Shown piece by piece: positions 26,417-62,846 of a stretch of DNA of 64,000 nucleotides. This stretch comes from Candidatus Kapaibacterium sp. (GTDB lineage Bacteria > Bacteroidota > Ignavibacteria > Kapaibacteriales > Kapaibacteriaceae): NCBI GenBank assembly GCA_044224925.1, contig JBGAJM010000010.1, positions 914 through 64,913 on the forward strand, read 5' to 3'. Position 1 is the stretch's first letter. Each line of letters starts with the position of its first letter. The position numbers and the translations under genes are program-made. The notes beneath the pieces are model-generated. The model saw only the letters and a list, made by a program, of their open reading frames with translations. It had not been told where the DNA came from and did no database searches.

Positions 26417-26486
26417 GGCGTGCGACACGGAGTGCGACACGGAGTGGGACACTAGCGTGGGACACTTCGTGGGACACTGCGTGCGC
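26405..26486. repeat. tandem 12-nt repeat (GTGCGACACGGA-like, 6 degenerate units) in the convergent intergenic region between the WYL and AbiEii genes
   Basis: gtgcgacactaaggcgtgcgacacggagtgcgacacggagtgggacactagcgtgggacacttcgtgggacactgcgtgcgcc. Confidence 0.8.
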
Positions 26487-29149: not shown

Positions 29150-29162
29150 GAACGCCTTCGGC

Positions 29163-29333
29163 GTGCGACACGGAGTGCGACACGGAGTGCGACACTTGCG
29201 TGCGACACGGAGTGCGACACGGAGTGCGACACGGAGTGGGACACGGAGTGCGACACGGAGTGCGACACGGAGTGCGACACGGAGTGCGACACTAGAGTGC
29301 GACACGGAGTGTGACACTAGCGTGGGACACCTC
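29163..29333. repeat. intergenic tandem array of about 14 copies of the 12-nt unit GTGCGACACGGA (same unit that encodes S-H-S-V inside the cyclase genes)
   Basis: Head-to-tail repeats gtgcgacacggagtgcgacacgga... with a few variant units (ctagag, ggagtgg). No spacers, so not CRISPR. Confidence 0.9.
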
Positions 29334-34218: not shown

Positions 34219-34326
34219 GGAGGAAAGGAGAATGAGAAGTAAGAAAGAAGGAAAAGAGAAGGAAAAAAGAAGGAAAAAAGAAGTACAAAAGAAGTACAAA
34301 AGAAGTGGCACTTCGTGGGACACATG
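34219..34326. repeat. CT-rich (coding-strand) tandem repeats (TTCCTTCTCTTT / TTGTACTTCTTT units) filling the 108-bp gap between the P3 stop and the P2 start
   Basis: Plus strand reads ggaggaaaggagaatgagaagtaagaaagaaggaaaagagaaggaaaaaagaaggaaaaaagaagtacaaaagaagtacaaaagaagtggcac. Homologous to the tract after P6 (44396..44470). Confidence 0.85.
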
Positions 34327-36285: not shown

Positions 36286-38567
36286 GATGCACCCTCCAAC
36301 CAGTACGTGTTCAATGCACCCTTGCCTTTGATGTCAATCGAGCCACGCTCGATAGTGACGAGTGACGAAGACACTGCGTGCGACACTTCATGCGACACGG
36401 AGTGCGACACGGAGTGCGACACCGAGTGCGACACGGAGTGCGACACGGAGTGCGATTCTGGATTGGGAGATTCCGAGATTGAATTCTGTATTGTGTATTC
36501 TGTATTCGCCTTCAATTGAATGGCAAACGCTTCGGACACCTGCACCCGTCCGGCCTCACCGCTGCTCTCCATTCGTGAGGCAACATTGACGGTGTCTCCC
36601 CACACATCATACTGCATGCGTTCTTTGCCGATAACGCCAGCAGTTACAGGGCCACAGTGCATTCCGATGCGGAAGAGCACTTCGTGCGACACGGGGATAA
36701 CGCCTTCGGCGTGCGACACCGAGTGCGACACGGAGTGCGACACTTCGTGGGAAAGACGAATACGCGACATATCCATGGCGCAGAGTGCAGCGTTGATCAC
36801 GTTGTCAAACGCCACGGCCATGTAGCTATCCCCGATCGTTTTGATCTTGGTGACGCCATACTTGGCACAGATCGCATCGCATTGTGTGAACACATCGTCG
36901 AGCAACTCGATCACATCTTGCGATGACATTGTTGAGGAGATCTCTGTGAAGCCGACGATGTCGAGGAAGATGACGGTTGCATTGTCATAGTGATCATTCA
37001 CCACCTCGCCCCTTGCCACCCTATCGGCCACTTCCTTGGGTAGGGTGGAATGAAGCACGGCCAGGTGTTTTGCGAGCTCGCGTTCACGGGCATCGATCTC
37101 GCGCTGCTTGGCCTGCATGGCGAGCTTGGTGGCCGTTTCCTTGCCGTTGACCTCTTCGGTGATGCGCGTGTATTCGTTGTTGTGCTCGACGTAGCGGGCA
37201 AGATCATTTTGCTCCAGCGCAAGATCGCGGAGGTGCTTGTGTGTCGACGCAATGTAGGGACGCAGTCCATGCTCTTGAGCGATGGCCAACGCGCGCAGGA
37301 GCGAATCGCGGGACTGCTCTGCGTCACCGGCGCGCACCTGCAATTGCGCACGATACACCTCACGCAAGATGTGCTGGTGCGGACTGTCGCTCTGAATTTC
37401 GTCGACGATCCCTAGCAGATCCATGGCATCGCCGTCTTTCTCCGCGGATAGATACATTCCGATCAGAGCATACCGAATGCGTTGAACATTTCCACGTTCG
37501 CCAAGCTCTTCTACGATCGTCAGTGCTCGCTGATACTGCTCAATGGCCGCGAGTTGGTCGCCGTTCCTCGCATACACCTCACCAATTCCGTAGATGGCTT
37601 CGGCCACATGAGAGGGTTCACCCAACTGTTCATACAAGGTACCAGCCCGCTGGTAGTGTTCAAGAGCCGCGGTGGTATCGCCGATGCGGTTGTGCAAGCC
37701 GCCGATACGTTCCAGCACATACGCGATCCCTCTGCGGCTGTCGATCTCTTCATAGATGGTGAGCGCCTGTTGCAAGTAGTCGAGTGCCGATGGATAGTCG
37801 CCGGTTTCGCGGTACACACCACCGATGTTCGCCATCACATGGGCAATACTGTGCGGTTCACCGACCTCCTGATGGATCGACAGTGATCGACGGTACTGCT
37901 CCAACCCCGCTGGATAGTCACCCATCATAAGGTAGGCGTTGCCGATGTTGCCCAAGGTACGAGCGACCGCGCCTCGATCGCCGTGTTCGGCATGCATACT
38001 CAGAGAGCGTTGAAAGTGCTCCAGGGCTGTACGATAGTCACCGAGATTGTAGTAGATGATGCCGATGCTTCCGGTGACAAGTGCGACGGAATTGAGTTCC
38101 CCGAGCTCGCTATTGAGAGCGAGGGCTCGTTGGTAGTTCGTCATGGCCGCGTCGTAGTCGTTGCATTCCAGCATCACGGCAGCAAGATTCCCTGACGCAC
38201 GAGCCACACCACGACGGTCGGCCGTTTCTTCACTTATGGTGAGGGCCCTTCGATGGAAGTTCAACGCTTCAGAATAATCGCCGGTTCGGCAGAGAGCACT
38301 GCCGATATTGTCCAAGGTGACCGCCTGGCCTGCACGGTCGCCAAGCGCTTCATACAGTGCCAACGCAGCACGACCATGCTCCAGCGCTTTGGCATAGTTG
38401 TCGCGCAACAGCATGGCCCATCCGCGTATGCGGTGGGCGAGGGCCTGCGCTTCCGGTGTTGCGACCGTATCGAGCTCGGTGGCAAGGGTCAGCAAGGCGG
38501 CGGCGTCGTTGATCCGCATCGCCGCCTGAACGGCCTCGCGGATCTCGTCAAAGGGGCGGGGTGACAT
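36282..38567 (-). CDS. TPR-repeat + class III adenylyl cyclase protein (paralog P4, subfamily A) with two (SHSV)n inserts
   Basis: Insert 1 is LSHEVSHSVSHSVSHAEGVIPVSHEV, before FRIGMHCGP. Insert 2 is NPESHSVSHSVSHSVSHSVSHSVSHEVSHAVSSS, before LVTIERGSIDIKGKG. Its stop overlaps the P3 start. Confidence 0.8.
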   Translation of the reverse strand: MSPRPFDEIREAVQAAMRINDAAALLTLATELDTVATPEAQALAHRIRGWAMLLRDNYAKALEHGRAALALYEALGDRAGQAVTLDNIGSALCRTGDYSEALNFHRRALTISEETADRRGVARASGNLAAVMLECNDYDAAMTNYQRALALNSELGELNSVALVTGSIGIIYYNLGDYRTALEHFQRSLSMHAEHGDRGAVARTLGNIGNAYLMMGDYPAGLEQYRRSLSIHQEVGEPHSIAHVMANIGGVYRETGDYPSALDYLQQALTIYEEIDSRRGIAYVLERIGGLHNRIGDTTAALEHYQRAGTLYEQLGEPSHVAEAIYGIGEVYARNGDQLAAIEQYQRALTIVEELGERGNVQRIRYALIGMYLSAEKDGDAMDLLGIVDEIQSDSPHQHILREVYRAQLQVRAGDAEQSRDSLLRALAIAQEHGLRPYIASTHKHLRDLALEQNDLARYVEHNNEYTRITEEVNGKETATKLAMQAKQREIDARERELAKHLAVLHSTLPKEVADRVARGEVVNDHYDNATVIFLDIVGFTEISSTMSSQDVIELLDDVFTQCDAICAKYGVTKIKTIGDSYMAVAFDNVINAALCAMDMSRIRLSHEVSHSVSHSVSHAEGVIPVSHEVLFRIGMHCGPVTAGVIGKERMQYDVWGDTVNVASRMESSGEAGRVQVSEAFAIQLKANTEYTIQNSISESPNPESHSVSHSVSHSVSHSVSHSVSHEVSHAVSSSLVTIERGSIDIKGKGALNTYWLEGAS

Positions 38568-38655
38568 GGAGGGAAGTTACGAATCAGAGTGACGAGTGAC
38601 GAGTGACAAGTGACACTTCGTGGGTCCTATATTGTTGATCCTTGATCCTTGATCT

Positions 38656-39936
38656 TTGATTCATCTTCCATCCTCCCCCATGATCCTCCGCTCCTTCCTC
38701 CTCCTGCTTGTCGGCGTGGTCGTGCTTGTCGGACGAGCACAGGGTCAGCATTGCACGAACGACCAGCGCTATACCGACGTGGTGACCTTCGATACCGCCC
38801 AGATCACGATCGGCGCGAATGTTCAATACGGCACGGCCAACGATGTGCAAGGGAGTCCGGTGCCGTTGCTCATGGACCTGTACTATCCGAACCTTGCCGT
38901 CGACCCAGTGGCGGCACGACCGATGATCGTGCTCTTTCATGGAGGCGGGTTCTCGTCGGGTGACAAACAGTCGGGCGACATCCGCGACCTCTGCGTGCAT
39001 CTGGCCATGCGCGGCTTTGTGTGTGCATCCGTGAACTATCGGCTCGGACATGACTTCTCGGAGTACGGACAGTACAAGGCGCGGTATCGCGCGATCCAGG
39101 ATGGCCATGCCGCCCTTCGATTCATTGTGCGCAATGCCGCCACCGTCCGCATCGACACGAACTGGCTGTTCGTTGGCGGACAAAGTGCCGGCTCGTTGCT
39201 GGCGCTGGGCATGGTGTATGCGGATCAGAGCGAGCTCGACAGTATATCGCTGCTCTATGGCACGACGGCTGTGAGCGCGGAGTTGGGAGGCTTGCATACG
39301 TCCGGCAATGCACTGACGAATTCGTATTCCATCAAGGGCATCTTCAACAACTGGGGCGGTGTTGTTGCGAGCGAAGTGGATGCGGACGAAATGATCCCCA
39401 CCATTGCCTTTCACGGTGGCCTCGATCCGTTGGTCCCGATCGATGTCGATACGTCGTTCGCACACTGCGCACTGCTTGGCTCGCGAGCGATCCATGCCGA
39501 TCTGATCGCCAACGGCGTGTGCAGCGAGTTGAACGTAGAGGTATCGGGTGGACACGGCATCTATCGCGATGCTGCAAGCGTGTTCAGAGCACAACATGCG
39601 AGCTGCTTCTTCCGCTCGATCTTCTGTGATCGTTGCTCGAGTTTCTCCACCACCGATTCGATCCCTTCATCGTGCTCGTCCCCTGTCCACGTCGACGAGC
39701 AACCGCGCACCACCTCATTCCACATCGACCCCAATCCTTTCGAAAGCATCATGACCATTGGAGGGTTGGAGGGTGGCGCGGAACTCACGGTCTACAACTG
39801 CTTCGGACAAGTGGTCCGCACAGCTCACGTCGGCAATGGCCCCCTTCACCTTGATGTATCGCCGGGTTTGTACATTCTGCACGTACAACCCACGGGAAAC
39901 AGCAGTAGATTCACGAAGGTGGTGGTGAGGCGATGA
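38656..39936 (+). CDS. alpha/beta-hydrolase esterase/lipase with T9SS C-terminal sorting domain
   Basis: Signal peptide; VLFHGGGFSSGD oxyanion motif; nucleophile elbow GGQSAGS; C-terminal Por domain IDPNPFESIMTIGG...LYILHVQPTGNSSRFTKVVVRR. Confidence 0.75.
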   Translation: MIHLPSSPMILRSFLLLLVGVVVLVGRAQGQHCTNDQRYTDVVTFDTAQITIGANVQYGTANDVQGSPVPLLMDLYYPNLAVDPVAARPMIVLFHGGGFSSGDKQSGDIRDLCVHLAMRGFVCASVNYRLGHDFSEYGQYKARYRAIQDGHAALRFIVRNAATVRIDTNWLFVGGQSAGSLLALGMVYADQSELDSISLLYGTTAVSAELGGLHTSGNALTNSYSIKGIFNNWGGVVASEVDADEMIPTIAFHGGLDPLVPIDVDTSFAHCALLGSRAIHADLIANGVCSELNVEVSGGHGIYRDAASVFRAQHASCFFRSIFCDRCSSFSTTDSIPSSCSSPVHVDEQPRTTSFHIDPNPFESIMTIGGLEGGAELTVYNCFGQVVRTAHVGNGPLHLDVSPGLYILHVQPTGNSSRFTKVVVRR

Positions 39937-40190
39937 AGAAGAGGAATACAGAATACACAATACAGAATTCAATCAAAGAATCAAGGAATCAAGAATCACA
40001 CGAAGTGTCGCACAGCGTGTCGCACAGCGTGTCGCACGCCGAAGGCGTTTTCTTCGTGTCGCACTCCGTGTCGCACGAAGTGCCACTTGTCACTCGTCAC
40101 TCGTCACTTGTCACTGTCGAACGAGGATCGTTCGACATCAAAGGCAAAGGCCCCATGCGCACGTATTGGTTGGAAAGGAGCGATCGATGA
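39933..40190 (+). pseudogene. stand-alone 85-aa ORF that is a chimeric C-terminal remnant of a TPR-cyclase gene
   Basis: MKKRNTEYTIQNSIKESRNQESHEVSHSVSHSVSHAEGVFFVSHSVSHEVPLVTRHSSLVTVERGSFDIKGKGPMRTYWLERSDR joins insert-2-type, insert-1-type and terminal beta-strand sequences. Its TGA stop overlaps the P5 ATG exactly as between intact pairs. Confidence 0.6.
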
Positions 40191-42259
40191 GGACCTTCAA
40201 GGAGATCGCTGCGGACATCGATCGTGCGATGATCAACAACGAAGCGGACGTCTTGCGTTCGCTGGCCCGTGAGGCGCAAGCATTGCATACATGGCAATCA
40301 GAGGCGCTTGCAGAGCTGGCGATGGGAACAGCCGAGCGCCAAATCGGTGCATACACATCGGCGCTTGAGAGTTTCCGTCGTGCGCTTGATCTGTTTGACA
40401 AGAAAGGCGACAAAACAGGATCAGCGCGAGCAATGGGAAGTATCGGCAATGTCCACCACAACATGGGCAACAATGCCTTGGCCATCGAGCAGTACCGTCG
40501 TGCACTCGCACTGCATACTGAGCTCGGTGATCGCATTGGCGTGGCAAGAAGTACGAACAACATGGGCAATGTGTACTACAACACCGGCGACTATCCGTCA
40601 GCACTGGAGCACTACAGAGCTGCATTGGCCACCTATGCAGAGATGGGTGACGTGGTTGCTACGGCTCGCATCACAACGAACATCGGGAACATCTATGGGA
40701 TCACGGGCGACTATCCGTCGGCGCTGGAACACTATCAGCGAGCGCTGCCGTCGCTGGAAGAAATGTCCGACCGTTTTACGATAGCACTCGTCACTGCCAA
40801 CATTGGCGGAGTGTACAAAGCCACCGGTAACAATACCTTGGCACTGGAGCACTTCGATCGTGCACTATCGCTCACGGAAGAGTTGGGCGATCGTGCCAAT
40901 ACAGCTCTTTGCTACGCCAACATGGGGAATGTGTATTCAGAGATCGGTGAGTTCGCAACGGCGCTCGACTACTACTCGCGTGCTCTGGCAAGTGGCAAGG
41001 AACTGGGTGATAGCGCTCTCATCGCCAACATGACAGGCACCTGCTGCGGCGTGTACATCGAGATGGGACGATATGAAGAGGCCTCTGCATGCCTTGATAC
41101 CCTTTCCTCCATGCCATTGGCGAGCCCATTGATCCAATTCGGATACAAGGCCAACTGCAGTGCGCTGGCCCGGCATCGCGGAGATCTTGATGCTGCAACG
41201 GAGCATGCTCTCGAGGCTTTGGAGATCGCCACTTCGGCTGGTTTGCGAGCAGAGGCGGCGCGATGCCACGAACTCCTTCGCGACCTGGCACAGTTGCGGA
41301 ATGACTTCGCCGCCTACATCGAGCACAACAACGAGTTCTCGCGCATCACGCAAGAGATCAACGGCAGGGAGACGGCAACGAAACTGGCCATGCAAGCAAA
41401 GCAGCGCGAGATCGACGAACGCGAGCGTGAGCATCAGAAACACCTTGCCGTCCTCCATTCCACCCTGCCCAAGGAGGTTGCTGAAAGGGTGGCAAGGGGC
41501 GAGGTGGTGAATGATCACTACGACAATGCAACCGTGATCTTCCTTGATATCGTCGGCTTCACGGATCTATCGTCAACAATGTCGTCGCAAGAGGTCATTG
41601 CTCTACTCGACGACGTCTTCACCCAATGCGATGCGATCTGCGAGAAGCATGGCGTCACGAAGATCAAGACGATCGGTGACTCCTACATGGCCGTATCGTT
41701 TGACAGCGTCGTCAACGCTGCACTCTGCGCCTTGGAAATGTCGCGGATTCGTCTTTCCCACGCAGTGTCGCACTCCGTGTCGCACGCAGTGTCGCACGCC
41801 GAAGGCGTCCTCCCCGTGTCGCATGAAGTTACATTCCGTATTGGCGTGCATTGTGGACCTGTGACGGCCGGTGTGATCGGCACGCAGCGTCTTCAATATG
41901 ACGTCTGGGGAGACACGGTGAACGTTGCGTCGCGAATGGAGTCCTCTGGTGAACCAGGGAAGGTGCATGTTTCCGAAGCGTTTGCCATTCAATTGAAGGC
42001 GAATACAGAATACATGATACAGAATCCAATCTCTGAATCTGTGAATCCACAATCCCACGAAGTGTCGCACTCCGTGTCGCACAACGTGTCGCACAACGTG
42101 TCCCACTCCGTGTCCCACTCCGTGTCGCACTCCGTGTCGCACAACGTGTCGCACTCCGTGTCGCACGAAGTGTCTTCGTCACTTGTCACCATCGAACGAG
42201 GATCGATCGACATCAAAGGCAAGGGCCCCATGCGCACCTACTGGCTCGAACAAGCGTGA
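40187..42259 (+). CDS. TPR-repeat + class III adenylyl cyclase protein (paralog P5, subfamily A) with two (SH[SNA]V)n inserts
   Basis: Start MRTFKEIAADIDRAM. Insert 1 is SHAVSHSVSHAVSHAEGVLPVSHEV. Insert 2 is a 10-unit run QSHEVSHSVSHNVSHNVSHSVSHSVSHSVSHNVSHSVSHEVSSS. Confidence 0.8.
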   Translation: MRTFKEIAADIDRAMINNEADVLRSLAREAQALHTWQSEALAELAMGTAERQIGAYTSALESFRRALDLFDKKGDKTGSARAMGSIGNVHHNMGNNALAIEQYRRALALHTELGDRIGVARSTNNMGNVYYNTGDYPSALEHYRAALATYAEMGDVVATARITTNIGNIYGITGDYPSALEHYQRALPSLEEMSDRFTIALVTANIGGVYKATGNNTLALEHFDRALSLTEELGDRANTALCYANMGNVYSEIGEFATALDYYSRALASGKELGDSALIANMTGTCCGVYIEMGRYEEASACLDTLSSMPLASPLIQFGYKANCSALARHRGDLDAATEHALEALEIATSAGLRAEAARCHELLRDLAQLRNDFAAYIEHNNEFSRITQEINGRETATKLAMQAKQREIDEREREHQKHLAVLHSTLPKEVAERVARGEVVNDHYDNATVIFLDIVGFTDLSSTMSSQEVIALLDDVFTQCDAICEKHGVTKIKTIGDSYMAVSFDSVVNAALCALEMSRIRLSHAVSHSVSHAVSHAEGVLPVSHEVTFRIGVHCGPVTAGVIGTQRLQYDVWGDTVNVASRMESSGEPGKVHVSEAFAIQLKANTEYMIQNPISESVNPQSHEVSHSVSHNVSHNVSHSVSHSVSHSVSHNVSHSVSHEVSSSLVTIERGSIDIKGKGPMRTYWLEQA

Positions 42260-44376
42260 GAGGCTTCGACGACATCGAAGCAGACCTCCGTCATGCCTAT
42301 GCCGTGAACGATGCCGAGGCATTGCTTCGATTTGCCGACGAACTCGACAACATCACAACACCACAGGCCGCAGCGCACGCACAGCGTGCGAGAGGGTGGG
42401 CGCTGCTGTTGCGCGGCGAGTTCACTCCCGCCATGCATCACTTCGAACAGGCGCTGACGCTTTGCGAAGAGCTCGACGATCAGGAGGGTGTGGCGCGGGT
42501 GGTGAGCAACATCGGTAGTGTGTATGTCTGCACAGGCGATGTGTCCATGGCGCTCGAGCACTACCGTCGCGCACTGGCATTGCACGAACAACTTGGCAAT
42601 CGCAGTGGTGCTGCCGTGGTGATGGGCAACCTTGGTAAACTCTCGACCGACACCGGTGACTACCCCGCTGCCGTCGAGTACTTCCGTCGCGCATTGTCGA
42701 TCCACGAAGAACTTGGCAACCGCAGCGGCATCGCCGTGGTCACCACCAACCTTGGCAATCTCTATCTCAGCATGGGCGACTTCCCTGCCGCCCTCGAGCA
42801 CTACCACAAGGCCCTTGCCCTGCATGAGGAATTCGGCGATCGTCACGCCATTGCCGTCGTCACGGGAAACATCGGCATCGTTCACAACTATACCGGCAAC
42901 TACCCTGCCGCCTTGGAATTCTTCCACCGTGCCCTTGCCTTGCATGAAGAGCTTGGCGATCGCAGCACGGCGGCCACCGTCATCGGCAACATGGGCGTTG
43001 CGCTTGCGAACACGGATGATCAAGAAGCGGCGTTGGAGCATTACCTGCGCGCGTTGGCGCTGTATGAAGAGCTTGGCGATCGGCGATGCATGGCGAACTT
43101 CATGAGCAACATCGGCAGTGCGTACAACGACATGGGACAGCACCCGGAAGGGCTCGCCTATCACCGTCGCGCACTGACCTTGTTCGAAGAGCTCGGCAAT
43201 CCGAAAGGTGGTGCCAATGCCATGGTCAACATGATCGGCGCACACATTGCCATGGGTGAGGATGCCGAGGCACAAACGCTTCTTCAGAGGATGGACACAA
43301 TGCAGGTGGACGAGCCCGAGATCCGCATCGCACGTGAGCAACATCGGGCTGAGCTACAGGAGCGAAACGGTGATCGCGATAGCGCGATCGCTACACTGCG
43401 CCATGTGCTCGCAGTGGCGCATGAACACGACCTCCCGTCTAATGTTGCCGAAACACATCGGCGGCTGCGCGACGTGGCGTATCGACAGCAAGATCTGTCC
43501 GCCTACGTCGAACACAACGATGCCTTCTCGCGCATCACGCAGGAGATCAACGGAAAGGAAACAGCGATACGACTTGCCATGCAGACCAAGCAGCGCGAGA
43601 TCGATGCCCGCGAACGCGAGTACGCCAAACAGATGGCCGTGCTCCATTCCGCCTTGCCAAAACATGTGGCGGATAGGGTGGCACGGGGCGAGGTGGTGAA
43701 CGATGCATTCGACAATGCGACCGTGATCTTCCTCGACATTGTGGGGTTCACGACGATGTCGTCGTCCATGTCGTCCCAAGACCTCATCCAGCTCCTCGAC
43801 CGCATCTTCACGGCATTCGATGACATCTGTGAGCGGCACGGCGTGACGAAGATCAAGACCATCGGCGATTCATACATGGCTGTGGCGTTCGATAGTGTTG
43901 TGAACGCCGCACTCTGCGCTTTAGAGATGTCGCGGTTTCGCATCTCCCACGAAGTGTCGCACTCAGTGTCGCACTCCGTGTCGCACAACGTTGCATTCCG
44001 CATCGGAATGCACTGCGGGTCGGTAACGGCGGGCGTGATCGGCAAGGAGCGCATGCAGTATGATGTGTGGGGAGACACGGTGAATGTTGCGTCACGCATG
44101 GAGAGTTCAGGAGAGGCCGGGCGGGTGCATGTGTCCGAAGCGTTTGCAATTCAATTGAAGGCGAATACAGAATACACAATACAGAATTCAATCACGGAAT
44201 CCCCAAATCCAGAATCCCACGAAGTGTCACACTCCGTGTCGCACAACGTGTCGCACAACGTGTCGCACTCCGTGTCGCACTCCGTGTCTTCGTCACTTGT
44301 AACTATCGAGCGTGGCTCGATCGATATCAAAGGCAAGGGTGCAATGCAGACCTACTGGCTTGAGTCGAGAGATTAG
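42256..44376 (+). CDS. TPR-repeat + class III adenylyl cyclase protein (paralog P6, subfamily A)
   Basis: Start overlaps the P5 stop (ATGA). Inserts SHEVSHSVSHSVSHNVAFRIG and ESHEVSHSVSHNVSHNVSHSVSHSVSSS. Canonical cyclase motifs present. Confidence 0.8.
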   Translation: MRGFDDIEADLRHAYAVNDAEALLRFADELDNITTPQAAAHAQRARGWALLLRGEFTPAMHHFEQALTLCEELDDQEGVARVVSNIGSVYVCTGDVSMALEHYRRALALHEQLGNRSGAAVVMGNLGKLSTDTGDYPAAVEYFRRALSIHEELGNRSGIAVVTTNLGNLYLSMGDFPAALEHYHKALALHEEFGDRHAIAVVTGNIGIVHNYTGNYPAALEFFHRALALHEELGDRSTAATVIGNMGVALANTDDQEAALEHYLRALALYEELGDRRCMANFMSNIGSAYNDMGQHPEGLAYHRRALTLFEELGNPKGGANAMVNMIGAHIAMGEDAEAQTLLQRMDTMQVDEPEIRIAREQHRAELQERNGDRDSAIATLRHVLAVAHEHDLPSNVAETHRRLRDVAYRQQDLSAYVEHNDAFSRITQEINGKETAIRLAMQTKQREIDAREREYAKQMAVLHSALPKHVADRVARGEVVNDAFDNATVIFLDIVGFTTMSSSMSSQDLIQLLDRIFTAFDDICERHGVTKIKTIGDSYMAVAFDSVVNAALCALEMSRFRISHEVSHSVSHSVSHNVAFRIGMHCGSVTAGVIGKERMQYDVWGDTVNVASRMESSGEAGRVHVSEAFAIQLKANTEYTIQNSITESPNPESHEVSHSVSHNVSHNVSHSVSHSVSSSLVTIERGSIDIKGKGAMQTYWLESRD

Positions 44377-44395: not shown

Positions 44396-44500
44396 CCACT
44401 TCTCTTGTACTTCTTTCTTCCTTCTCTTTTCCTTCTCTTTTCCTTCTCTTTTCCTTCTCTTTTCCTTCTCGTGACTCGTCACTCGTCACTTGTCACTTCC
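44396..44500. repeat. CT-rich 12-nt tandem repeat (TTCCTTCTCTTT x5) followed by 9-mer units (GTGACTCGTCACTCGTCACTTGTCAC), downstream of P6
   Basis: cttctcttgtacttctttcttccttctcttttccttctcttttccttctcttttccttctcttttccttctcgtgactcgtcactcgtcacttgtcac. Homologous to the P3/P2 intergenic tract. Confidence 0.85.
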
Positions 44501-45734
44501 ACAACATCCCCACCGGCACGGCATACATGTTGTTCCCAAAGCCAACACATGCAGTACCGTCATAGAGCACCACGCCGGCCACGAATCGATCACCTGCTAA
44601 CGACTTGAGTTTGCGAAGTCCGCGGAAGTCTGCGGCCGTTACCGTTGCCGAAGCCTTGACCTCAATGCCGGCCACCTGATGTTGCCCGCGCTCGAGTACA
44701 AGATCTACTTCTACACCATCCTTGTCGCGAGCATGAGAAAAGCGGATGTGATCCGTACGCCAACTAGCCTGCTTGAAGAGTTCTTGCACGACAAAGGTCT
44801 CGAGCAGCGGCCCAACCTTCGTACGATCATTCCACAGTGTCTCTTCGTTGAGCCCAAGCAGTGCACATGCAACACCTGTGTCAACGATATGCAGCTTCGA
44901 TGCCTTGACGAGACGATTCATCTGATTCACATGCCACGGTGGAAGTCTGTCGACAAGGAAGATCTGCTCCAGCAAGGTCATGTAGGACGCGATCGTTGTG
45001 CGGCTCATCTGAAACGGCGACGCAAGATCACTGATGTTCACTAAGCTCGACGTTTGTCCGGCCGTCATCACGAGCAGTCGGTGCAACACATCAACCGATG
45101 CGATCCGCGCAATGTCTCGCGCATCACGCTGAATGATCGATGTGCTATAGTCACGATACCATGCCGCTCGACGATACTCTTGCGTGCGTCGAAGTGCACG
45201 CGGATACCCGCCGGAAACGATACGCGTGATCAGGTCACGACCAAGTCGCTCAACCGTTCGCGTCGGGAACGACCCCTCGAACAGCGTGTCCAGAAACCGA
45301 GGTGTTGTCCCCGCCAGCTCGGACTGTGAAAATGGATACATGCGCAGGATGCTCATCCTACCGGCCAAGGAGTCTGCCAAGGTGGGAAGGAACAGGATAT
45401 TCGCAGAGCCGGTGAGTAGCACTTGCCCCGGTACGTTTCGCGCGTCAACTCGCGCCTTGAGAGGTGCGAAGATCGTAGGCACGCGTTGTACTTCGTCCAA
45501 AACGGCTCGGTTCGGCAGATCAGCCACGAAACCTGCGGGATCTGCCTTCGCCGACTTCAGGAGGGCAGGGTCGTCAAAGCTGAAGTACGTGTAGCCTTGG
45601 AATGCTGTAAGTTCCTTTGATGTTGTAGACTTACCACATTGCCTCGGACCATGCAGTAGCACCACCAGAGAATCTTCCAGGGCCTCGAGCAAGGACGGCA
45701 TACACGAGCGAACGATGGTCTGATCGGTGTCCAT
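44493..45734 (-). CDS. AAA+ family ATPase (COG1373-like, DUF4143 C-terminal region)
   Basis: Internal start MDTDQTIVRSCMPSLLEALEDSLVVLLHGPRQCGKST (Walker A). The ORF track extends to 45773. Confidence 0.6.
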   Translation of the reverse strand: MDTDQTIVRSCMPSLLEALEDSLVVLLHGPRQCGKSTTSKELTAFQGYTYFSFDDPALLKSAKADPAGFVADLPNRAVLDEVQRVPTIFAPLKARVDARNVPGQVLLTGSANILFLPTLADSLAGRMSILRMYPFSQSELAGTTPRFLDTLFEGSFPTRTVERLGRDLITRIVSGGYPRALRRTQEYRRAAWYRDYSTSIIQRDARDIARIASVDVLHRLLVMTAGQTSSLVNISDLASPFQMSRTTIASYMTLLEQIFLVDRLPPWHVNQMNRLVKASKLHIVDTGVACALLGLNEETLWNDRTKVGPLLETFVVQELFKQASWRTDHIRFSHARDKDGVEVDLVLERGQHQVAGIEVKASATVTAADFRGLRKLKSLAGDRFVAGVVLYDGTACVGFGNNMYAVPVGMLWK

Positions 45735-45754
45735 GATTCTGCAATCTACGAAAT

Positions 45755-45873
45755 AGTAGCGGCTACTTGCCAACTTATAGTGCGGCTACTTGCCAACTTT
45801 TAGTGCGGCTACTTGTCAACTTTTAGTGCGGCTACTTGCCATCTTTTAGTGCGGCTACTTGCCACTCGTCACT
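45755..45873. repeat. 5 tandem copies of a ~24-bp unit (TAGTGCGGCTACTTGCCAACTTTT), ending in 9-mer units
   Basis: tagtagcggctacttgccaacttatagtgcggctacttgccaacttttagtgcggctacttgccaacttttagtgcggctacttgccatcttttagtgcggctacttgccactcgtcactcgtaactc. The first unit contains the perfect hairpin AGTAGC-G-GCTACT. Lies between the Fic stop and the AAA ATPase start. Confidence 0.85.
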
Positions 45874-45879
45874 CGTAAC

Positions 45880-47076
45880 TCAATTCGCGCCTTCATTCAG
45901 GATGGAGAGATACCGGTGGTATGCAAAGACACGATTGCGCTGCTTCCCGGTGATCTCACGCACGATGCCAAGGCTCGTCAGAACATCGATGGCTTTGCTT
46001 GCTGTCGGGAACGTCATAGCGGCCATCGCACAGATCCGATCGATGGTGACGATAGGACGTGCTTGCAATGCCGAATGCACACGGAGGACGCTGCCGAGAT
46101 TACGGCCATGTAAGCGAATGACTTCACTGTCGGTGTTGAAGCATGTGATGAGTCGCTGTGCGGTGTCGACCGCACCTGCAGAGGTTTGCTCCACGCCCTC
46201 CAGAAAGAACCCTAGCCACTGCTCCCAATCGCCCGTTGTCCGCACATGACCAAGGAGACGGTAGTATTCGGCCCTGTGTTTCTTGAGATACAGACTCAGG
46301 TACAGAAGTGGCTGTCGGAGTACGCGCTCGTGTTGCAAGATCATGGCAATGAGTAGCCGACCAGTTCGCCCGTTCCCGTCGAGGAATGGGTGAATGGTCT
46401 CGAATTGCACGTGTGCCAATGCGGCTTTGACCAGTGTTGGCACATCGTTCCGGTGGATGTACTTCTCAAGGTCCGACATGCACTGTTCTACCACATGGGC
46501 TGGTGGTGGCACGAACTCCGCATTGCCGGGTCGCGTGCCACCGATCCAGTTCTGACTGCGGCGGAATTCACCCGGCATGCGCTCAGAGCCACGTCCACCT
46601 GCCATGAGTCGCTCGTGGATCTCCTTGATCAGTCGATTTGAAAGTGGGAACCCTGCCGCCATTCGGTCAAGGCCATGCTGCATCGCGGCCACGTAGTTCG
46701 AGACCTCGGCCACGTCGTCGAATGGCACGCCCGGCGCTTCGTCGAGTTCAAAGAGCAAAAGATCGGACAGCGAAGACTGCGTCCCCTCGATCTGTGACGA
46801 AAGCACTGCCTCCCGTCGCACGTACGAATACAGGAAGATGCTTGCGTCCGGCAGCAAGGCCGACACGCTATCCAGTCTCCCACATGCCAGGAGCGCACGC
46901 TCCATGGTCCTACTCAAGGCAGCATCCATAAGGATGGGTGGAAAAGGCGGCAAGGCACTGGGCACATAGGCCCGTACTGTTTCACCTCCCACCGTCGTGG
47001 TTTCATATGTTCCGTTTTCTTGGCGGCGCATCGATCCAATGTACGAAAGATCTTTCGTTATTAAAGTAAATGCCAC
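45880..47076 (-). CDS. Fic/DOC family protein (adenylyltransferase-type)
   Basis: Fic motif HPFLDGNGRTGR. About 398 aa, possibly starting at internal Met 16. Confidence 0.8.
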   Translation of the reverse strand: MAFTLITKDLSYIGSMRRQENGTYETTTVGGETVRAYVPSALPPFPPILMDAALSRTMERALLACGRLDSVSALLPDASIFLYSYVRREAVLSSQIEGTQSSLSDLLLFELDEAPGVPFDDVAEVSNYVAAMQHGLDRMAAGFPLSNRLIKEIHERLMAGGRGSERMPGEFRRSQNWIGGTRPGNAEFVPPPAHVVEQCMSDLEKYIHRNDVPTLVKAALAHVQFETIHPFLDGNGRTGRLLIAMILQHERVLRQPLLYLSLYLKKHRAEYYRLLGHVRTTGDWEQWLGFFLEGVEQTSAGAVDTAQRLITCFNTDSEVIRLHGRNLGSVLRVHSALQARPIVTIDRICAMAAMTFPTASKAIDVLTSLGIVREITGKQRNRVFAYHRYLSILNEGAN

Positions 47077-47110: not shown

Positions 47111-48579
47111 TCGTATTTTGCCTCCCTATGCCCCGCCACCCTTCAAACCCCTCGAAACCTGCCAAAACCACTTCAAAAACCCCGTCAAAGGCCTCGCTGA
47201 CAGACCAATTGCGCGAGGTGCCGGTGGATGTGCTGGTCGACCTGATCGAGCGGCATGCCAAGACGGTTCCGGCGCTGAAGCAGGAGATGATGCGGCTGGT
47301 TGGGAACGACAAGACGGTGATCACGGAGATCAAGCGGGCGATCAAGAAGCTCGCGGCGGTGCGACCAAACACGAGGAGTCGACCCAAGGAGATCCAGACG
47401 CAGCTTGTGAGCGTGCTCGAACTGATCAAACATCTGTCCCTCCGACGTCCGCACGAAGCACTGCCCCTCCTCTGCTTGCTCCTCGAAGATGCATCGAATG
47501 TTGCCGGCTCGTTCTCGCAAACAAGTGTTGTGGCAGCGTTCTTCCGTGACACGCTTCCTTCTGCCGGTGCCGATGTGCTCGCGCGTTGCAGTGACCTTGA
47601 TCTCGTCCGCCACGAAGTAGGTCAGGTAATGTTGAAGGATCGATACCGCACAAAGGCTTGGTTCCTGCAAGGCGTTGGTGATGCGCTTCCGGAGGATCTT
47701 GTGGACGAACTGCGTCGCGCCTTCGCTGCACGCATCAAGCATCATACAAGCCCATGGGACGACCTGGAAGATGAAGCCATCCTCTTGCTCAAGGCGCTTG
47801 AATTCTCGGTCGGCGATGTGGTCGGCTATGAGAAGGCAGCAAGGCGGCAAGGCATGCTGCATCGCAGTGATGGGATCGCGCTTGCACAGATGTGCATCGG
47901 TCACGAGGACTATGCCGCGGCCAATGTGTGGTTGGACAAGATCCCGAACGATGTCGACAACCCTGCAGCGCGCGCGATGAACAAGCAACGTGACGCATTG
48001 TATCTCCAGATCGCAACGGCCACGGGAAGCACGGCCCATGCGGCATTGGCGTTCCGTTCGCACATGCTCACGCAACCATCCACGGAGACGATCGCCATGC
48101 TTCGCACGCTTCTCGGTGACGATGGCGCGATGAATGCCGTGCGCGAAGCCGCGCTGCAGCTCGTTGCGAAGGATGACCCTTCACCACGCGTCATGACGTT
48201 TTTCGTGCAGAACGGCTATGATGATGTGATGGAAGAACGCATGTTCGCACCATTGGTTCGTGATGCGATGGCATTTCATCACGAGTGGCAACTCGTCGAG
48301 GCGTTCATCGACAAGATGCGTTTCCACGGTGCCTTGCAGGCATGCCGACATTTCATTACAGATATACTGACCGACTCATACTTCACGATGTATGGCGAGG
48401 CCATCTACGCCATGCAGCTCCAACGAGCACTCGCTCGTGATCGTAAAGACCTGCGAGGTCTCCAAACGGCCGATGCATTCGAGAGCGAACTTCGTCTCGC
48501 GTTCAACAACGAAACCTCTTTCTGGAGAGATCTCGACGTTGCGAGCACACGTCGCTTCCCGGGTTCTCCACTTCTCTGA
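47107..48579 (+). CDS. hypothetical protein (about 483-490 aa)
   Basis: Long ORF of coding composition divergent from the Fic gene. No domain recognised. Start may be Met 8 (47128). Confidence 0.5.
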   Translation: MVVFCLPMPRHPSNPSKPAKTTSKTPSKASLTDQLREVPVDVLVDLIERHAKTVPALKQEMMRLVGNDKTVITEIKRAIKKLAAVRPNTRSRPKEIQTQLVSVLELIKHLSLRRPHEALPLLCLLLEDASNVAGSFSQTSVVAAFFRDTLPSAGADVLARCSDLDLVRHEVGQVMLKDRYRTKAWFLQGVGDALPEDLVDELRRAFAARIKHHTSPWDDLEDEAILLLKALEFSVGDVVGYEKAARRQGMLHRSDGIALAQMCIGHEDYAAANVWLDKIPNDVDNPAARAMNKQRDALYLQIATATGSTAHAALAFRSHMLTQPSTETIAMLRTLLGDDGAMNAVREAALQLVAKDDPSPRVMTFFVQNGYDDVMEERMFAPLVRDAMAFHHEWQLVEAFIDKMRFHGALQACRHFITDILTDSYFTMYGEAIYAMQLQRALARDRKDLRGLQTADAFESELRLAFNNETSFWRDLDVASTRRFPGSPLL

Positions 48580-48648
48580 TCTTCGATTCTGTATTATGTA
48601 TTCTTGATCCTGTATTCTTGATTCTGTATTGATCTTCCCATTCCCCTG

Positions 48649-52345: not shown

Positions 52346-54439
52346 TCATGTCGTATCTGCTGAGGTCAACCAGTACGTCCGCATTGGGCCTTTGCCTTTG
52401 ATGTCGACAGACCCCCTTGGGGTAGTGACAAGTGACGAAGACACTTCGTGCGACACTTTGTTCGACACGGAGTGCGACACCGAGTGCGACAATTCGTGAG
52501 ACACGTTGTGCGACACCGAGTGCGACACGTTGTGCGACACGGAGTGCGACACGTTGTGCGACACAGAGTGGGATTGTGGATTCTCTGATTCAGAGATTGA
52601 ATTCTGTATTGTGTATTCTGTATTGCTCTTCAGATTCAAAGCAAACGCCTCGGACACATGCACCCTTCCGGCCTCTCCCGTACTCTCCATCCGTGACGCC
52701 ACGTTGACGGTATCTCCCCACACATCGTATTGCAACCGCTGCGTTCCGATCACGCCGGCCGTCACTGGTCCACAATGCACGCCAATTCGGAAGAGCACTT
52801 CGTGCGACACGGAGTGCGACACGTTGTGCGACACTTCGTGGGACACGGAGTGCGACACTTCGTGGGTAATGCGAACGCGCGACATGTCCAAGGCACAGAG
52901 CGCCGCATTCATGGCGCCGTCGAACGAGACGCACATATAGCTGTCGCCAATGGTCTTGATCTTCGTGACGTTGTGTTGCTCACAGATCGCATCGAACGAC
53001 GTGAAGATCTGCTCGAGGAGCTGCACCACATCGCTGGGCGCCATGCGATCGCTCATTCGGGTAAACCCAACGATGTCGACGAAGATCACCGACGCATTCT
53101 CGTAGTGATCGCCACTGACCTTCTCTCCGCGGATCATGCGGTCGGCCACATGCTTCGGCAGTGCGCCATAGAGCAAGGCGCGTTCCTTCTCACGCTCACG
53201 TCGCTCCCCTTCCACCTTTCGCTCCGCCTCCATCATGGTCATACGTTGCGTGGTCTCTTTGCCACGAACTTCTTCGGTGATGCGCGTGAACTCGTTGTTG
53301 TGTTCGATGTAGGCGGTGAAGTCGTTGCGCTTCTGTGCAAGGTTCCGAAGTCGTTCATGACACAACGCTTCATCCGCCTTGATGCCCGTCTCGGAAGCAA
53401 GGCTGAGTGCCTGTTGCAAGGCGGCAAGGGCAGCATCAAGGTCACCACGTCGTTCGGCTAGAGTGGCACGATTGGCAAGATGGATCACACGCGTTTCAGG
53501 GTCATCCATGAGCATCGTTGCTTGCTCATCAAGAAGCGTTCCAGCCTCCTCATCACGACCAAGCTCGAGCAATGCAAGAACAATGTTCCCGGTCACGGTG
53601 CTCACGCCGGCGCGATCGCCGATCTGCTGATGCAGGTCGCGTGCCCGCCGATGTAGCGCGAGCGCCTCTTCGTACTCGTGCATCATGGCATGAACGAGGC
53701 CCATGTTGGACGTGATGCGCGCTGCATGGGCAATGTCGGCATGCGCTTCGTGCATTGCGAGCGCTCGACGATAGTGGTCAAGCGCCTGATCGTGATCGCC
53801 CGTGCTGTGATAGATGTTGCCAATGTTGCCGGTGACGATAGCGATGCCGCGACGGTTGTCATCCTCTTCATGGATGGCGAGGGCACGACGCAGTAAGGCA
53901 AGTGCTTCCGGATAGTTTCCCGTGCTCCAGTACACGTTTCCTAGATTACTTGCAACGCGCGCCGTGTTAGCGCGATCGCCGAGATCGTCGTGCATCTCAA
54001 GGGATCGATGCAGTTGTTGCATGGCCCGTGGGAAATCGCCCATGCTATCGTGGACCAAGCCGATGTTGCCGGTGACAACAGCAATACCATCGCGATCGCC
54101 GAGTTCCTCGTAGGTGGCAAGGGCACGATGCAGATGTTCCAAGGCCTCGGCATACTGTCCCATACTTGCATGCATGCTCCCAAGCGCTGAGCACGTGCGT
54201 GCGATGGAGCGCCGATCTCCGAGCTCTGAGAACAAGGCCAGAGCCCGACCATGGTGTTGGAGGGAGGCAGGGTAGTCGTGCGTGAAGGAGCAGGCCATGC
54301 CAAGAGCGCGCGCCGCCTGCGCTTCGGCCTCGCGTGTATCGTGCGTCTGCAGTTCCGCGGCCAACGTCGACAAGACAACGGCATCTCTCTTCGCGACAGC
54401 TGCTTCGACGTCGGTGAGGATGTCGGCCAGCGCTCTCAT
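52346..54439 (-). CDS. TPR-repeat + class III adenylyl cyclase protein (paralog P7) with the longest (SH[SNE][VL])n inserts
   Basis: Start moved to MRALADILTDVEAAV (54439) to remove a spurious N-terminal extension. Insert 1 is THEVSHSVSHEVSHNVSHSVSHEV. Insert 2 is about 13 units, QSHSVSHNVSHSVSHNVSHSVSHNVSHELSHSVSHSVSNKVSHEVSSS. Confidence 0.8.
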   Translation of the reverse strand: MRALADILTDVEAAVAKRDAVVLSTLAAELQTHDTREAEAQAARALGMACSFTHDYPASLQHHGRALALFSELGDRRSIARTCSALGSMHASMGQYAEALEHLHRALATYEELGDRDGIAVVTGNIGLVHDSMGDFPRAMQQLHRSLEMHDDLGDRANTARVASNLGNVYWSTGNYPEALALLRRALAIHEEDDNRRGIAIVTGNIGNIYHSTGDHDQALDHYRRALAMHEAHADIAHAARITSNMGLVHAMMHEYEEALALHRRARDLHQQIGDRAGVSTVTGNIVLALLELGRDEEAGTLLDEQATMLMDDPETRVIHLANRATLAERRGDLDAALAALQQALSLASETGIKADEALCHERLRNLAQKRNDFTAYIEHNNEFTRITEEVRGKETTQRMTMMEAERKVEGERREREKERALLYGALPKHVADRMIRGEKVSGDHYENASVIFVDIVGFTRMSDRMAPSDVVQLLEQIFTSFDAICEQHNVTKIKTIGDSYMCVSFDGAMNAALCALDMSRVRITHEVSHSVSHEVSHNVSHSVSHEVLFRIGVHCGPVTAGVIGTQRLQYDVWGDTVNVASRMESTGEAGRVHVSEAFALNLKSNTEYTIQNSISESENPQSHSVSHNVSHSVSHNVSHSVSHNVSHELSHSVSHSVSNKVSHEVSSSLVTTPRGSVDIKGKGPMRTYWLTSADTT

Positions 54440-56639: not shown

Positions 56640-56770
56640 CACTCGTCACTCGTCACTTGTCACTCCTCACGCTCCTCATCACTTGTCACTTGTCACTCGT
56701 CACTTGTCACTCTACTCGTCACATGTCACTCGTCACTTGTCACTTGTCACTCGTCACTTGTAACTCTCTC
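56640..56770. repeat. tandem array of about 14 copies of the 9-mer TCACTCGTC / TCACTTGTC in the divergent promoter region between P8 and the serine hydrolase gene
   Basis: cactcgtcactcgtcacttgtcactcctcacgctcctcatcacttgtcacttgtcactcgtcacttgtcactctactcgtcacatgtcactcgtcacttgtcacttgtcactcgtcacttgtaactc. Confidence 0.9.
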
Positions 56771-56827: not shown

Positions 56828-57823
56828 ATGGACACAACGGGGGCGTTCGAGAACGTGAACCTCGGCCTGGCCGACGTGGCCGGCAACGTGCCGGTGACGG
56901 ATTCGACGGTCTTCATGTCGTATTCGATGACGAAGGTGATCACCGCCATCGCCGCTCTGCAACTTGCGCAAGAGGGTCTGCTCGACCTCGATGCCGATGC
57001 GCATCGGTACCTTCCATGGCTCCCCTATGCACAGCCCATCTCCACCCGACAGCTTCTCGCGCACACGGCCGGCATCCCCAATGCCATTCCATTACGATGG
57101 GTGCATCTGCCCGAGGCGCATGGGACGTTCAAAGAAGACTCGGCTCTGCGGGCCGTGCTGGCGGATAATGCCGACCTGACGTCGACGCCCGGTACGCGCT
57201 ATCGCTATAGCAACATCGACTACTGGATCGTGGGTGCCATCATCGAACACATCACCGGCCGATCGTATGAAGCGGTCGTTCGCGACAAGATCTTCCGGCC
57301 CCTTGGCCTCACCCACTCCGGCTTCTACATCCCTTCCGCCCTCCCCCTTGCAAAGGGCTATCTGCGTCGGTGGACGTGGATGAACCTCTTCAAATGGTTG
57401 GTCACCGATAGCGAGTACTGGGGCGAGTATGAAGACGGCAAGCTCAACATCGTTCCGCACTACGTGAACGGTCCGGCCTATGGCGGCCTCTACTCGACCA
57501 GTCACGACCTCGCCCTGATCTGCGCCGATCTCCTGCGCACAAACAGCATCCTCCTCAACGCCGCATCACGCGCCACGCTCTTCACCGCAGCCACCCTGAC
57601 CAACGGAAGCACGACCGACATGACGCCCGGCCTGCACATCGTCCCCCATCCCTCCCTTCGCATTTTCATGAAGGAAGGCGGCGGGGCGGGATTCCACAAT
57701 GAACTCCGCCTCTATCCCGACCTCGGCATGGTAGCCGTGCTGCAGACGAACGATGCGACGTTCGATGTGAAGAAGGTCTATGAAGAAATGGAAGAGAGAT
57801 CAATGATCAAGGATCAAGAATGA
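56828..57823 (+). CDS. serine hydrolase (beta-lactamase/transpeptidase-like fold)
   Basis: SxxK motif in FMSYSMTKVITAIAAL; start set at MDTTGAFENV (56828). The ORF-track N-terminal extension is translation of the 9-mer array (LVTRHLSLLTLLITCHLSLVTCHS). Confidence 0.6.
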   Translation: MDTTGAFENVNLGLADVAGNVPVTDSTVFMSYSMTKVITAIAALQLAQEGLLDLDADAHRYLPWLPYAQPISTRQLLAHTAGIPNAIPLRWVHLPEAHGTFKEDSALRAVLADNADLTSTPGTRYRYSNIDYWIVGAIIEHITGRSYEAVVRDKIFRPLGLTHSGFYIPSALPLAKGYLRRWTWMNLFKWLVTDSEYWGEYEDGKLNIVPHYVNGPAYGGLYSTSHDLALICADLLRTNSILLNAASRATLFTAATLTNGSTTDMTPGLHIVPHPSLRIFMKEGGGAGFHNELRLYPDLGMVAVLQTNDATFDVKKVYEEMEERSMIKDQE

Positions 57824-57911
57824 CGGAGGGTGGTGCAGAATTCGTTCCGAATTCTGTATTCTTGATGCTTGATGCTTGCGACATCCTCCCATTTTCTTCC
57901 CTTGCTATTCT

Positions 57912-62788: not shown

Positions 62789-62846
62789 AACTCGTCACTC
62801 GTCACTCGTCACTTGTAACTTGTCACTCGTCACTCGTAACTCTCTT
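62789..62846. repeat. short array of the 9-mer CTCGTCACT / CTTGTAACT in the convergent intergenic region
   Basis: aactcgtcactcgtcactcgtcacttgtaacttgtcactcgtcactcgtaactc. Confidence 0.85.

Follow-up and report, generated by a model that had tools for sequence, protein, structure and literature searches.

Class III adenylate cyclases depend on a small set of catalytic residues, namely a metal-binding aspartate pair together with substrate-binding and transition-state residues. Truncated genes that retain one end of such a protein family, and genes inserted by homologous recombination between repeats, are both event kinds already known, and 4-nucleotide (nt) ATGA overlaps between the stop codon of one gene and the start codon of the next are described as supporting termination-reinitiation coupling in bacteria (PMC6728339, PMC10666635). 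A literature search returned no paper on the cyclases analyzed here. We examined a 64,000-nt stretch of a Candidatus Kapaibacterium sp. contig (JBGAJM010000010.1, positions 914 to 64,913; hereafter the window), focusing on an open reading frame (ORF) of 85 codons, the stub, that lies between a gene for a secreted esterase and P5, one of the nine tetratricopeptide repeat (TPR)/class III cyclase genes of the window. We consider it likely that the stub is what is left of a cyclase paralog that has lost its body: a 3' tail without enzymatic function, into which P5 was later inserted, and thus an evolutionary scar.

For comparison, three other loci of the same lineage (L001, L067, and L066) and two distant outgroup loci (L008 and L022) were found. 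L001, L065, and L068 are parts of one 194-kb contig from a metagenome-assembled genome (MAG; GCA_018266735.1), referred to below as the sister genome, with an esterase 87-88% identical in amino acids (aa). L067 is a 1.5-kb ENA metagenome contig that was reached via the stub peptide (P0242, 83% identity) and whose P6 is 91% identical in DNA to P6 of the window, and L066 is a contig from JGI whose esterase has 77% identity. A search of metagenome contigs with the esterase gave nothing closer than 75%.

A cyclase tail beside the esterase gene

The position, sequence, and overlaps of the stub were borne out exactly as given in the initial annotation, which had described a chimeric cyclase tail left by a repeat-mediated deletion or recombination. 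Its ATG (39933-39935) overlaps the esterase TGA (39934-39936), and its TGA (40188-40190) overlaps the P5 ATG (40187-40189), each as ATGA. The same type of 4-nt overlap, [A/G]TGA, was found at every cyclase-cyclase junction of the window (P4/P3, P2/P1, P5/P6, and 54436/52346) and of the sister genome (A/B, B/U, U/P5L, P5L/C, and C/D). All nine cyclase 3' ends in the window aligned colinearly with stub nt 6-243, including the non-repetitive last beta-strand, in agreement with the earlier view of a 5'-truncated cyclase. The top match was the P5 tail (41995-42250; 77%, E 6e-51), and tblastn E-values reached down to 1e-31. For the non-repetitive last 71 nt of the stub, identity was 95.7% over 46 nt of the P5 tail (E 6e-17) and 92.7% over 41 nt of the tail of the gene at 52346-54448 (E 1e-11).

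A Pfam search placed stub residues 45-81 on positions 146-182 of the 183 positions of PF00211; at 16 bits, this match fails the gathering score of 21.9 for the whole domain, of which some 37 positions are covered. What the stub does encode is the C-terminal beta-hairpin with its KGKG motif (VERGSFDIKGKGPMRTYWLE), which aligns to all paralog ends. It begins downstream of the catalytic motifs, at ...LK[R]NTEY, with homology to the paralogs from its nt 6, and the part that carries the catalytic residues in the paralogs, from FLDIVGFT through KTIGDSY to YDVWGDTVN, is missing. With only positions 146-182 of the profile present, the stub holds no catalytic residue and so cannot be an enzyme.

It is barely credible that the ORF is not derived from a cyclase at all, but is a generic intergenic simple-repeat cassette whose likeness to cyclases arose by low-complexity chance. 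The repeat units (heptamer, octamer, and 12-mer) do occur between genes, as does even the AEGV block described below (29151-29317, 38587-38660, 44468-44497, 56640-56766, and 62790-62842). However, the non-repetitive 71-nt terminal strand matches cyclase ends only, the Pfam match falls at the very end of PF00211, and the order of blocks is colinear with that of the nine tails, which refutes this explanation. The terminal strand and the Pfam match argue that the similarity to cyclase tails is real rather than a low-complexity artifact, and with the E-value of 6e-17 against the P5 tail, the one outcome that was to have overturned the initial annotation, chance matches only, is ruled out. Partial homology, a truncation point at most 2 nt from the esterase stop, and colinearity to the end are all features of a gene remnant.

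The truncation is old. The junction between the esterase stop and the tail, GGTGGTGAGGC[G/A]ATGA[A/G]GAAGAG[G/C]AATACAGAATACAC, also read as GGTGGTGAGGC[G/A]ATGA[A/G]GAAGAG[G/C]AATACAG, is common to the window, L001, and L067, and it therefore predates the divergence of these three genomes. Homology to intact tails (...[C/T]TGAAGAGGAATACAG) starts at most 2 nt from the esterase stop, and the esterase TGA can be aligned with the TGA inside the CTGAAG of intact tails. Aligning the stub to its paralogs, as had been suggested, located the left breakpoint at the esterase stop, and comparison with L067 revealed a switch after 40162. The deletion scar envisaged earlier therefore stands as a truncation remnant, but repeat mediation of the first deletion is not shown, since microhomology at the esterase stop amounts to at most about 5 nt (TGAAG). 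In the outgroups, the L008 and L022 esterase orthologs end at the same residue position and have no stub, tail repeats, or cyclase there. L066 has a 51-nt spacer (11258-11308; TGAAGAGGAGTGCAGCAGTGCACTCCGTGACCCACAAAGCACGTAACTTCCACG) between the esterase stop and a non-orthologous cyclase gene. This spacer (TGAAGAGGAG...CACTCCGTGACCCACAAAG...) starts like the tail junction and holds a 12-mer-like unit, and it may be a more decayed relic copy; the evidence is too thin to claim it as one. Two further kinds of relic were sought. A 67-aa ORF before cyclase A in the sister genome (L065 3864-4067, ending in ...HSVSLPLVMIERGSK) was rejected as a tail relic, as blastn returned only 12-nt matches (E ~0.3), and translations downstream of the terminal chain genes, which also end in ATGA, showed nothing convincing as 5' cyclase relics.

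The search with the stub also matched a second orphan tail, P0244 (130 aa; ends ...AIQLKANTEYTIQNSIKESGNQESHEVPLVTRHLSLVTTPRGLIDLKGKGLMHAYWLESAS), in the sister genome (L068 6001-6393). P0244 overlaps by ATGA a 689-aa cyclase that, by position, is orthologous to window P1 and lies beside a peroxiredoxin gene (91%). Where the sister genome has this orphan tail, the window has the intact pair P2/P1 (P2, 32041-34220). The search of orthologous loci proposed in the initial annotation thus found no intact gene at the site of the stub, and the only contrast of intact gene and stub is at this second tail. P0244 was equated with P2 by position only; its last 36 nt match P2 and P4 equally well (27/36 each) and are not decisive for P2 as its origin. 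Its truncation point lies further upstream than that of the stub and therefore marks an independent event. Truncation of upstream chain members that spares the tail and the ATGA junction is therefore recurrent, and this pattern suggests that deletions of the tail end are selected against, since the tail end carries the start region of the next gene.

The junction between the stub and P5

The junction of the stub with P5 was not made by this deletion. The relatives point instead to P5 having been inserted later. L067 and L001 alike have an orphan tail that leads straight into the P6 ortholog, giving the order esterase, tail, P6. The L067 and window stubs are colinear over 230 nt, with no indels and 17 mismatches, and split after ...CATGCGCAC. 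Past this point, L067 continues with CTACTGGCTCGAACAAGCATGA and P6, that is, with the sequence that in the window forms the end of P5 (42238-42259) ahead of P6, whereas the window continues with GTATTGGTTGGAAAGGAGCGATCGATGA and P5. The P5 ortholog of the sister genome (P5L, P0121; 77%, reciprocal best hits) lies inside a six-gene chain about 8 kb from the L001 esterase locus. There, the gene upstream of it encodes an intact 703-aa cyclase, U, and is joined to P5L by the same junction (...CGATCGATGA) as in the window, in keeping with the earlier remark that the stub sits where an upstream pair member should be. The tail end of U (...ATTCTGGCTGGAAGGGAACGATCGATGA, followed by P5L) was the best match of all tails to the stub end (30/36), with a 6-nt indel in common. 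Moreover, the P5 tail contains a second copy of the segment before the switch point (40116-40162), at 42191-42237; the two copies agree at 44 of 46 aligned positions. By blastn, L065 9707-12165 aligned with window 39938-42276, and L065 18177-20571 with window 44437-42002.

The switch between L067 and the window, the U/P5L context, and the 47-nt repeat together indicate that a 2075-nt block (40163-42237) was inserted into the ancestral orphan tail in the window lineage, with the 47-nt direct repeat at its flanks. This block starts with 28 nt from the very end of a U-type tail, continues through the P5 body, and stops within the P5 tail, of which it holds the 5' part. Because two relatives show the empty site, parsimony makes the insertion the derived state. 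The stub is then a hybrid of the ancestral orphan tail (39933-40162) and a U-type tail end (40163-40190), and the present P5 tail the second, reciprocal hybrid. The proposed chimera is thus upheld in that the stub is a hybrid, but its main join is the one after 40162, not a crossover between insert-1 and insert-2 of the cyclases. A direct repeat, an empty site in L067 and L001, hybrid junctions, and the donor context U/P5L are all found, as for insertion by homologous recombination. The block could have entered by circle integration through a single crossover, by double-crossover copying from the U/P5 chain, or by two successive inversions between inverted tails, all of which would be recombination within tails.

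We considered whether an assembler jump between similar tails could have created this arrangement, so that the contiguity of esterase, stub, P5, and P6 exists in no cell. The sequences of the window, L001, and L067 all come from metagenomes, and the tails have repeats in common, but we judge such an artifact very unlikely. The esterase/tail junction was assembled independently three times, and two jumps would be needed, both via a 47-nt segment whose copies differ at 2 positions. Exact repeats within this segment are shorter than the final k-mers that assemblers typically use. The last 28 nt of the stub run unbroken into unique P5 sequence, and the array by the beta-lactamase gene differs between genomes beyond any single jump. 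Synteny between the window and the sister genome is otherwise kept (beta-lactamase region at 94.8%, D, Fic, P6, and esterase). The cyclase chain beside the beta-lactamase gene has six genes in the sister genome and two in the window, and reshuffling at tails is therefore common.

Features of the stub and its flanks in the window (1-based positions)
Feature	Position	Strand	Remarks
Esterase: secreted alpha/beta-hydrolase with type IX secretion system (T9SS)-type C-terminal sorting domain	38680-39936	+	Pfam BD-FAE, Abhydrolase_3, weak Por_Secre_tail
Stub: 5'-truncated cyclase 3' tail, 85 codons	39933-40190	+	ATGA overlaps at both ends; tail alignment
GAATACA heptamer and AATCNNNG octamer blocks (NTEYTIQNSIKESRNQES), start of 'insert-2'	39938-39998	+	
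12-mer (GTGTCGCACNNN, SHxV) array	40000-40083	+	Split by AEGV block
AEGV block CACGCCGAAGGCGTTTTCTTC	40035-40055	+	Inside 12-mer array
GTCACTY heptamer array (PLVTRHSSLVT)	40084-40115	+	Unit also in many intergenic arrays
Terminal beta-strand segment VERGSFDIKGKGPMR	40116-40162	+	Left copy of 47-nt direct repeat; last part colinear with L067 stub
Last 28 nt of stub GTATTGGTTGGAAAGGAGCGATCGATGA	40163-40190	+	Orthologous to tail end of cyclase U of L001
P5: TPR + class III cyclase gene, 690 aa	40187-42259	+	N-terminus MRTFKEIAADIDRAMINN matches that of its ortholog
Right copy of 47-nt direct repeat, within P5 tail	42191-42237	+	44/46 identical over 42192-42237
3' end of ancestral orphan tail CTACTGGCTCGAACAAGCGTGA, now end of P5	42238-42259	+	Contiguous with P6 start; matches L067 and L001 stub ends
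P6: cyclase gene directly 3' of orphan tail in L067 and L001	42256-44376	+	

Peptide, frame, and repeats of the tail

Compared with L067, the window stub has 13.8 nonsynonymous and 3.2 synonymous changes, a ratio of nonsynonymous to synonymous rates (dN/dS) of 1.3; over 383 codons of P6, the ratio is 0.13. The binomial probability of these differences is 1.6e-5 under P6-like constraint and 0.44 under neutrality, in a small sample of 17 differences, of which a cluster of nine (nt 36-58) may be one conversion event and the eight isolated ones are all nonsynonymous. The L001 copy has extra heptamers, a frameshift, and an in-frame TAA 68 nt before the P6 start; its terminal strand lies in another frame, KGKG has become KGKC, and the downstream gene is intact. 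This dN/dS, with the disruption in L001, argues that the stub peptide is neither conserved nor under purifying selection. Relaxed protein constraint and disruption of one orthologous copy are likewise features of a gene remnant. As for phase variation, heptamer arrays lie just 5' of the terminal strand; their copy number is the same in the window and L067, and is expanded and frame-breaking only in the L001 stub, and each of the 20 intact cyclases inspected, 9 from the window and 11 from the sister genome, is in frame. Because all three forward frames of the window stub are free of stops, repeat DNA of this kind is open by default, and its open frame is no evidence of coding.

These data also bear on the possibility that the stub has been exapted as a coupling leader, a translated spacer on which ribosomes re-initiate at both ATGA overlaps, tying P5 (or P6 in L067) to the esterase, and of which only the open frame matters. 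Such a leader would account for the ATGA overlaps at both stub ends in the window and L067, an arrangement known to support termination-reinitiation, for the absence of indels in 230 nt of slippage-prone repeats between these two genomes, and for a dN/dS near 1, which is what a sequence-independent leader should show; the second orphan tail of L001 likewise ATGA-overlaps its downstream cyclase. However, the L001 frame stops before P6 with the terminal strand out of frame and the gene behind it still intact, which argues that a coupling role is dispensable. An open frame is expected by default where no frame has stops, and slips of 12 nt would preserve the frame yet none are seen, so that the lack of indels reflects short divergence and not frame selection. 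Moreover, the last 28 nt of the stub, from the U-type tail end, contain AAGGAG 6 nt before the P5 ATG, which could drive independent initiation. We therefore regard a leader role as unlikely. The coupling geometry that the initial annotation likened to that of intact pairs is inherited and present in the window, but it is not conserved, given the frameshifted copy in L001.

Several observations weigh against reading the stub as a mere remnant. In two of the three genomes (window and L067), the ORF is unbroken and keeps its ATGA at either end, and a dN/dS near 1 may be compatible with selection for translation as such. Stub nt 61-230 (window 39993-40162, L067 181-350) differ from L067 at 5 of 170 positions (2.9%), with identical repeat copy numbers, compared with 8-9% for the esterase end and P6 flanks and 19% for P6 synonymous sites (Poisson P 0.004 and 5e-9, respectively), which could mean constraint at the level of DNA. 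No intact gene was found at the exact esterase/P6 site in any genome, where L067 and L001 have the orphan tail, L066 its 51-nt spacer, and L008 and L022 no cyclase, and the original deletion is thus inferred rather than seen. Finally, all genomes compared are metagenome assemblies, in which repeat copy numbers may be unreliable. The simplest reading of the low tail divergence is homogenizing gene conversion among tails. The start of the stub is its most diverged part, with 12 differences from L067 in its first 60 nt (39933-39992). The GAATACAGAATACACAATACAGAAT block is invariant in ten tails except at two P5-tail positions, in genes that are 45-60% identical in protein. The AATACAGAATACACAATACAGAAT block, synonymous sites included, is similarly invariant in ten paralogous tails from two genomes, two P5-tail positions excepted (for example, 39945-39968, 42002-42025, 44164-44187, 36483-36507, 54625-54648, and 52601-52624), and such a block points to concerted evolution or DNA-level constraint.

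On balance, we favor a remnant that formed in three steps. First, a cyclase upstream of P6 would have been truncated before the three genomes diverged; the resulting state is seen in all three and the mechanism is inferred. The tail from ...LKRNTEY onward would thereby have come to adjoin the esterase stop, forming the ATGA start/stop overlap. Second, as the comparison shows, in the window lineage the 2075-nt segment entered this orphan tail by homologous recombination in terminal-strand sequence, which left the 47-nt direct repeat behind and made hybrids of both the stub and the P5 tail as it now stands. Third, the peptide is not under purifying selection, and its frame stays open since the repeats are stop-free in every forward frame; in the sister species, heptamer expansion has broken it. 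The start region of the downstream gene (the ATGA junction and the purine-rich WLE codons) lies in the 3' end of the remnant, and this may be why the remnant persists. Ribosomes leaving the esterase gene may translate the stub passively, and it would have no protein function of its own.

The tails of all paralogs share one order of blocks: GAATACA heptamers, octamers, 12-mers, GTCACTY heptamers, and a terminal hairpin. The GAATACA heptamers encode NTEYTIQN and are followed by the AATCNNNG octamers, the 12-mer unit GTGTCGCACNNN encodes SHxV, the GTCACTY heptamers encode LVTRHSSLVT, and the hairpin has the consensus xERGSxDIKGKGxMxTYWLE. The AEGV piece, named insert-1 in the initial annotation (AEGVFFVSH, CACGCCGAAGGCGTT), is real, with four copies in the window compared with 0.25 expected by chance. 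One copy is in the stub, one each is in insert-1 of P4 and insert-1 of P5, and the fourth closes the intergenic 12-mer array at 29151. The L067 stub has the block too, but no L001/L065 cyclase does, orthologs of P4 and P5 included. Its occurrence in an intergenic array and in the L067 stub, without copies in L001 cyclases, argues that it is a unit that spreads among 12-mer arrays whatever their context, and no proof of a crossover between insert-1 and insert-2. The block can form a hairpin at 40036-40057 (ACGCC GAA GGCGT) followed by TTTCTTCG, which scored as terminator-like. Hairpins of this type are about as frequent as expected by chance, and the P4 and P5 coding regions contain the block as well, making a terminator role unlikely. 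An RNA element was likewise rejected, as the only Rfam match was at chance level (E 0.11) and fell at 40226-40316, in the P5 coding region outside the stub; the RNA fold z-score was -1.4, and sigma-70 promoter matches numbered zero.

Short tandem repeats occur throughout the genome (the 12-mer GTGTCGCACNNN, the heptamers GTCACTY and GAATACA, and a 7/8-mer, GATCAAG), and the same units are translated, in fixed order, within two loops of every TPR-cyclase paralog. Tail units form purely intergenic arrays at 26418-26483, 29151-29317, 38587-38660, 44468-44497, 45863-45881, 48572-48630, 56640-56766, and 62790-62842, and further repeat-rich intergenic spans lie at 44399-44497 and 57798-57878. The cassette upstream of P4 (38587-38660, minus strand) is tail-like and has neither 12-mers nor a terminal strand. 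In Ignavibacteria-type MAGs, including the L008 contig, the cyclase homologs P0129 and P0215 carry 4-residue LNEA/LNKA repeats, and also ANQIANSEQRIAN, instead of SHxV at the same two loop positions, and lineage-specific simple repeats seem to colonize the same two loops of the cyclase family. An 11-nt tandem repeat, CTTCTCTTTTC, is present in about 6.5 copies after the P6 stop (44399-44470) and again after the P3 stop on the other strand (34235-34306); both sites are preceded by ...CACG[C/A]AGTGCCACTTCT and may mark chain ends.

Other observations concern the neighboring genes. The esterase TGA is the left boundary of the remnant, and the 418-aa form of the esterase is identical to database protein P0001. 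The P5 frame is open for 258 nt upstream of its ATG (39929-40186), across the whole stub, with no ATG, GTG, or TTG before a TTG at 40166. P5 is not among the 100% protein-search matches, and the stub, P6, and the esterase are all in the same database. The beta-lactamase/HSP70-like region is highly conserved (94.8% identical in DNA). Of the cyclase chains next to it (window 52346-56556 against L065 3864-16772), the sister chain is ATGA-linked throughout, and the first of the two window cyclases (54436-56556) has no ortholog in that chain. A 426-aa ORF between P6 and the Fic gene (44493-45773, minus strand) has no counterpart there in L001 or L066; by eye it resembles an AAA-ATPase/DUF4143-type protein, but NCBIfam gave no match, and a 23-nt tandem repeat (4.8 copies, 45754-45864) precedes it.

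Comparison with known systems

We regard the stub as a genuine but unremarkable gene remnant within a paralog array that recombines. The tails seem to be exchange points in a very large cyclase family, as judged from three partial loci in metagenome assemblies. We can put forward only tentatively, and hold to be rather improbable, the wider idea that the repeat-laden 3' tails are portable recombination sites that let whole cyclase genes move as cassettes, with orphan tails acting as landing pads that provide a start region and ATGA coupling. If true, a gene and the tail end of its upstream neighbor could be excised and re-inserted in any other tail, an integrase-free, integron-like reshuffling of a large signaling-gene family, and selection on the DNA itself would explain why tail blocks are nearly invariant and why the 3' two-thirds of the stub has diverged so little. 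Taken alone, the stub is a pseudogene fragment that changes little. As a dated marker, and with two empty sites, it documents the move of a cyclase gene between chains at nucleotide resolution and gives a concrete picture of TPR-cyclase sensor reshuffling in a poorly known Bacteroidota/Ignavibacteria-like lineage. The stub and two similar ORFs stand as predicted proteins in public databases, a warning to annotators that such short ORFs are relics.

Among described systems, the stub resembles a 5'-truncated pseudogene of the kind seen in tandem paralog arrays. Its homology to functional paralogs is confined to their 3' end, all catalytic residues are lacking, the peptide evolves neutrally, one relative has a disrupted copy, and the sister genome provides an independent second example. 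Unlike such a pseudogene, the stub keeps start/stop overlaps with both neighbors and an open frame in two genomes, and it consists mostly of lineage-specific simple-sequence repeats that are stop-free in every forward frame. With respect to the class III cyclase domain PF00211, the stub encodes the last beta-hairpin, xERGSxDIKGKGxMxTYWLE, but only about 37 of 183 positions at a sub-threshold score, without metal-binding, substrate-binding, or transition-state residues.

The P5 block is similar to a Campbell-type (single-crossover) or ends-in insertion in being flanked by a direct repeat of a homologous segment, with reciprocal hybrid copies, and in that relatives show both the empty site and the context of the donor. 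It differs in that the P5 'repeat' is supplied by the cyclase genes, as their conserved 3' tail, and whole genes move keeping their ATGA junctions. Finally, the stub has the 4-nt overlap of translationally coupled pairs (PMC6728339, PMC10666635), as do all cyclase-cyclase junctions here. In contrast to those pairs, the upstream 'gene' at this locus is a relic without a conserved peptide, and its geometry is lost in L001.

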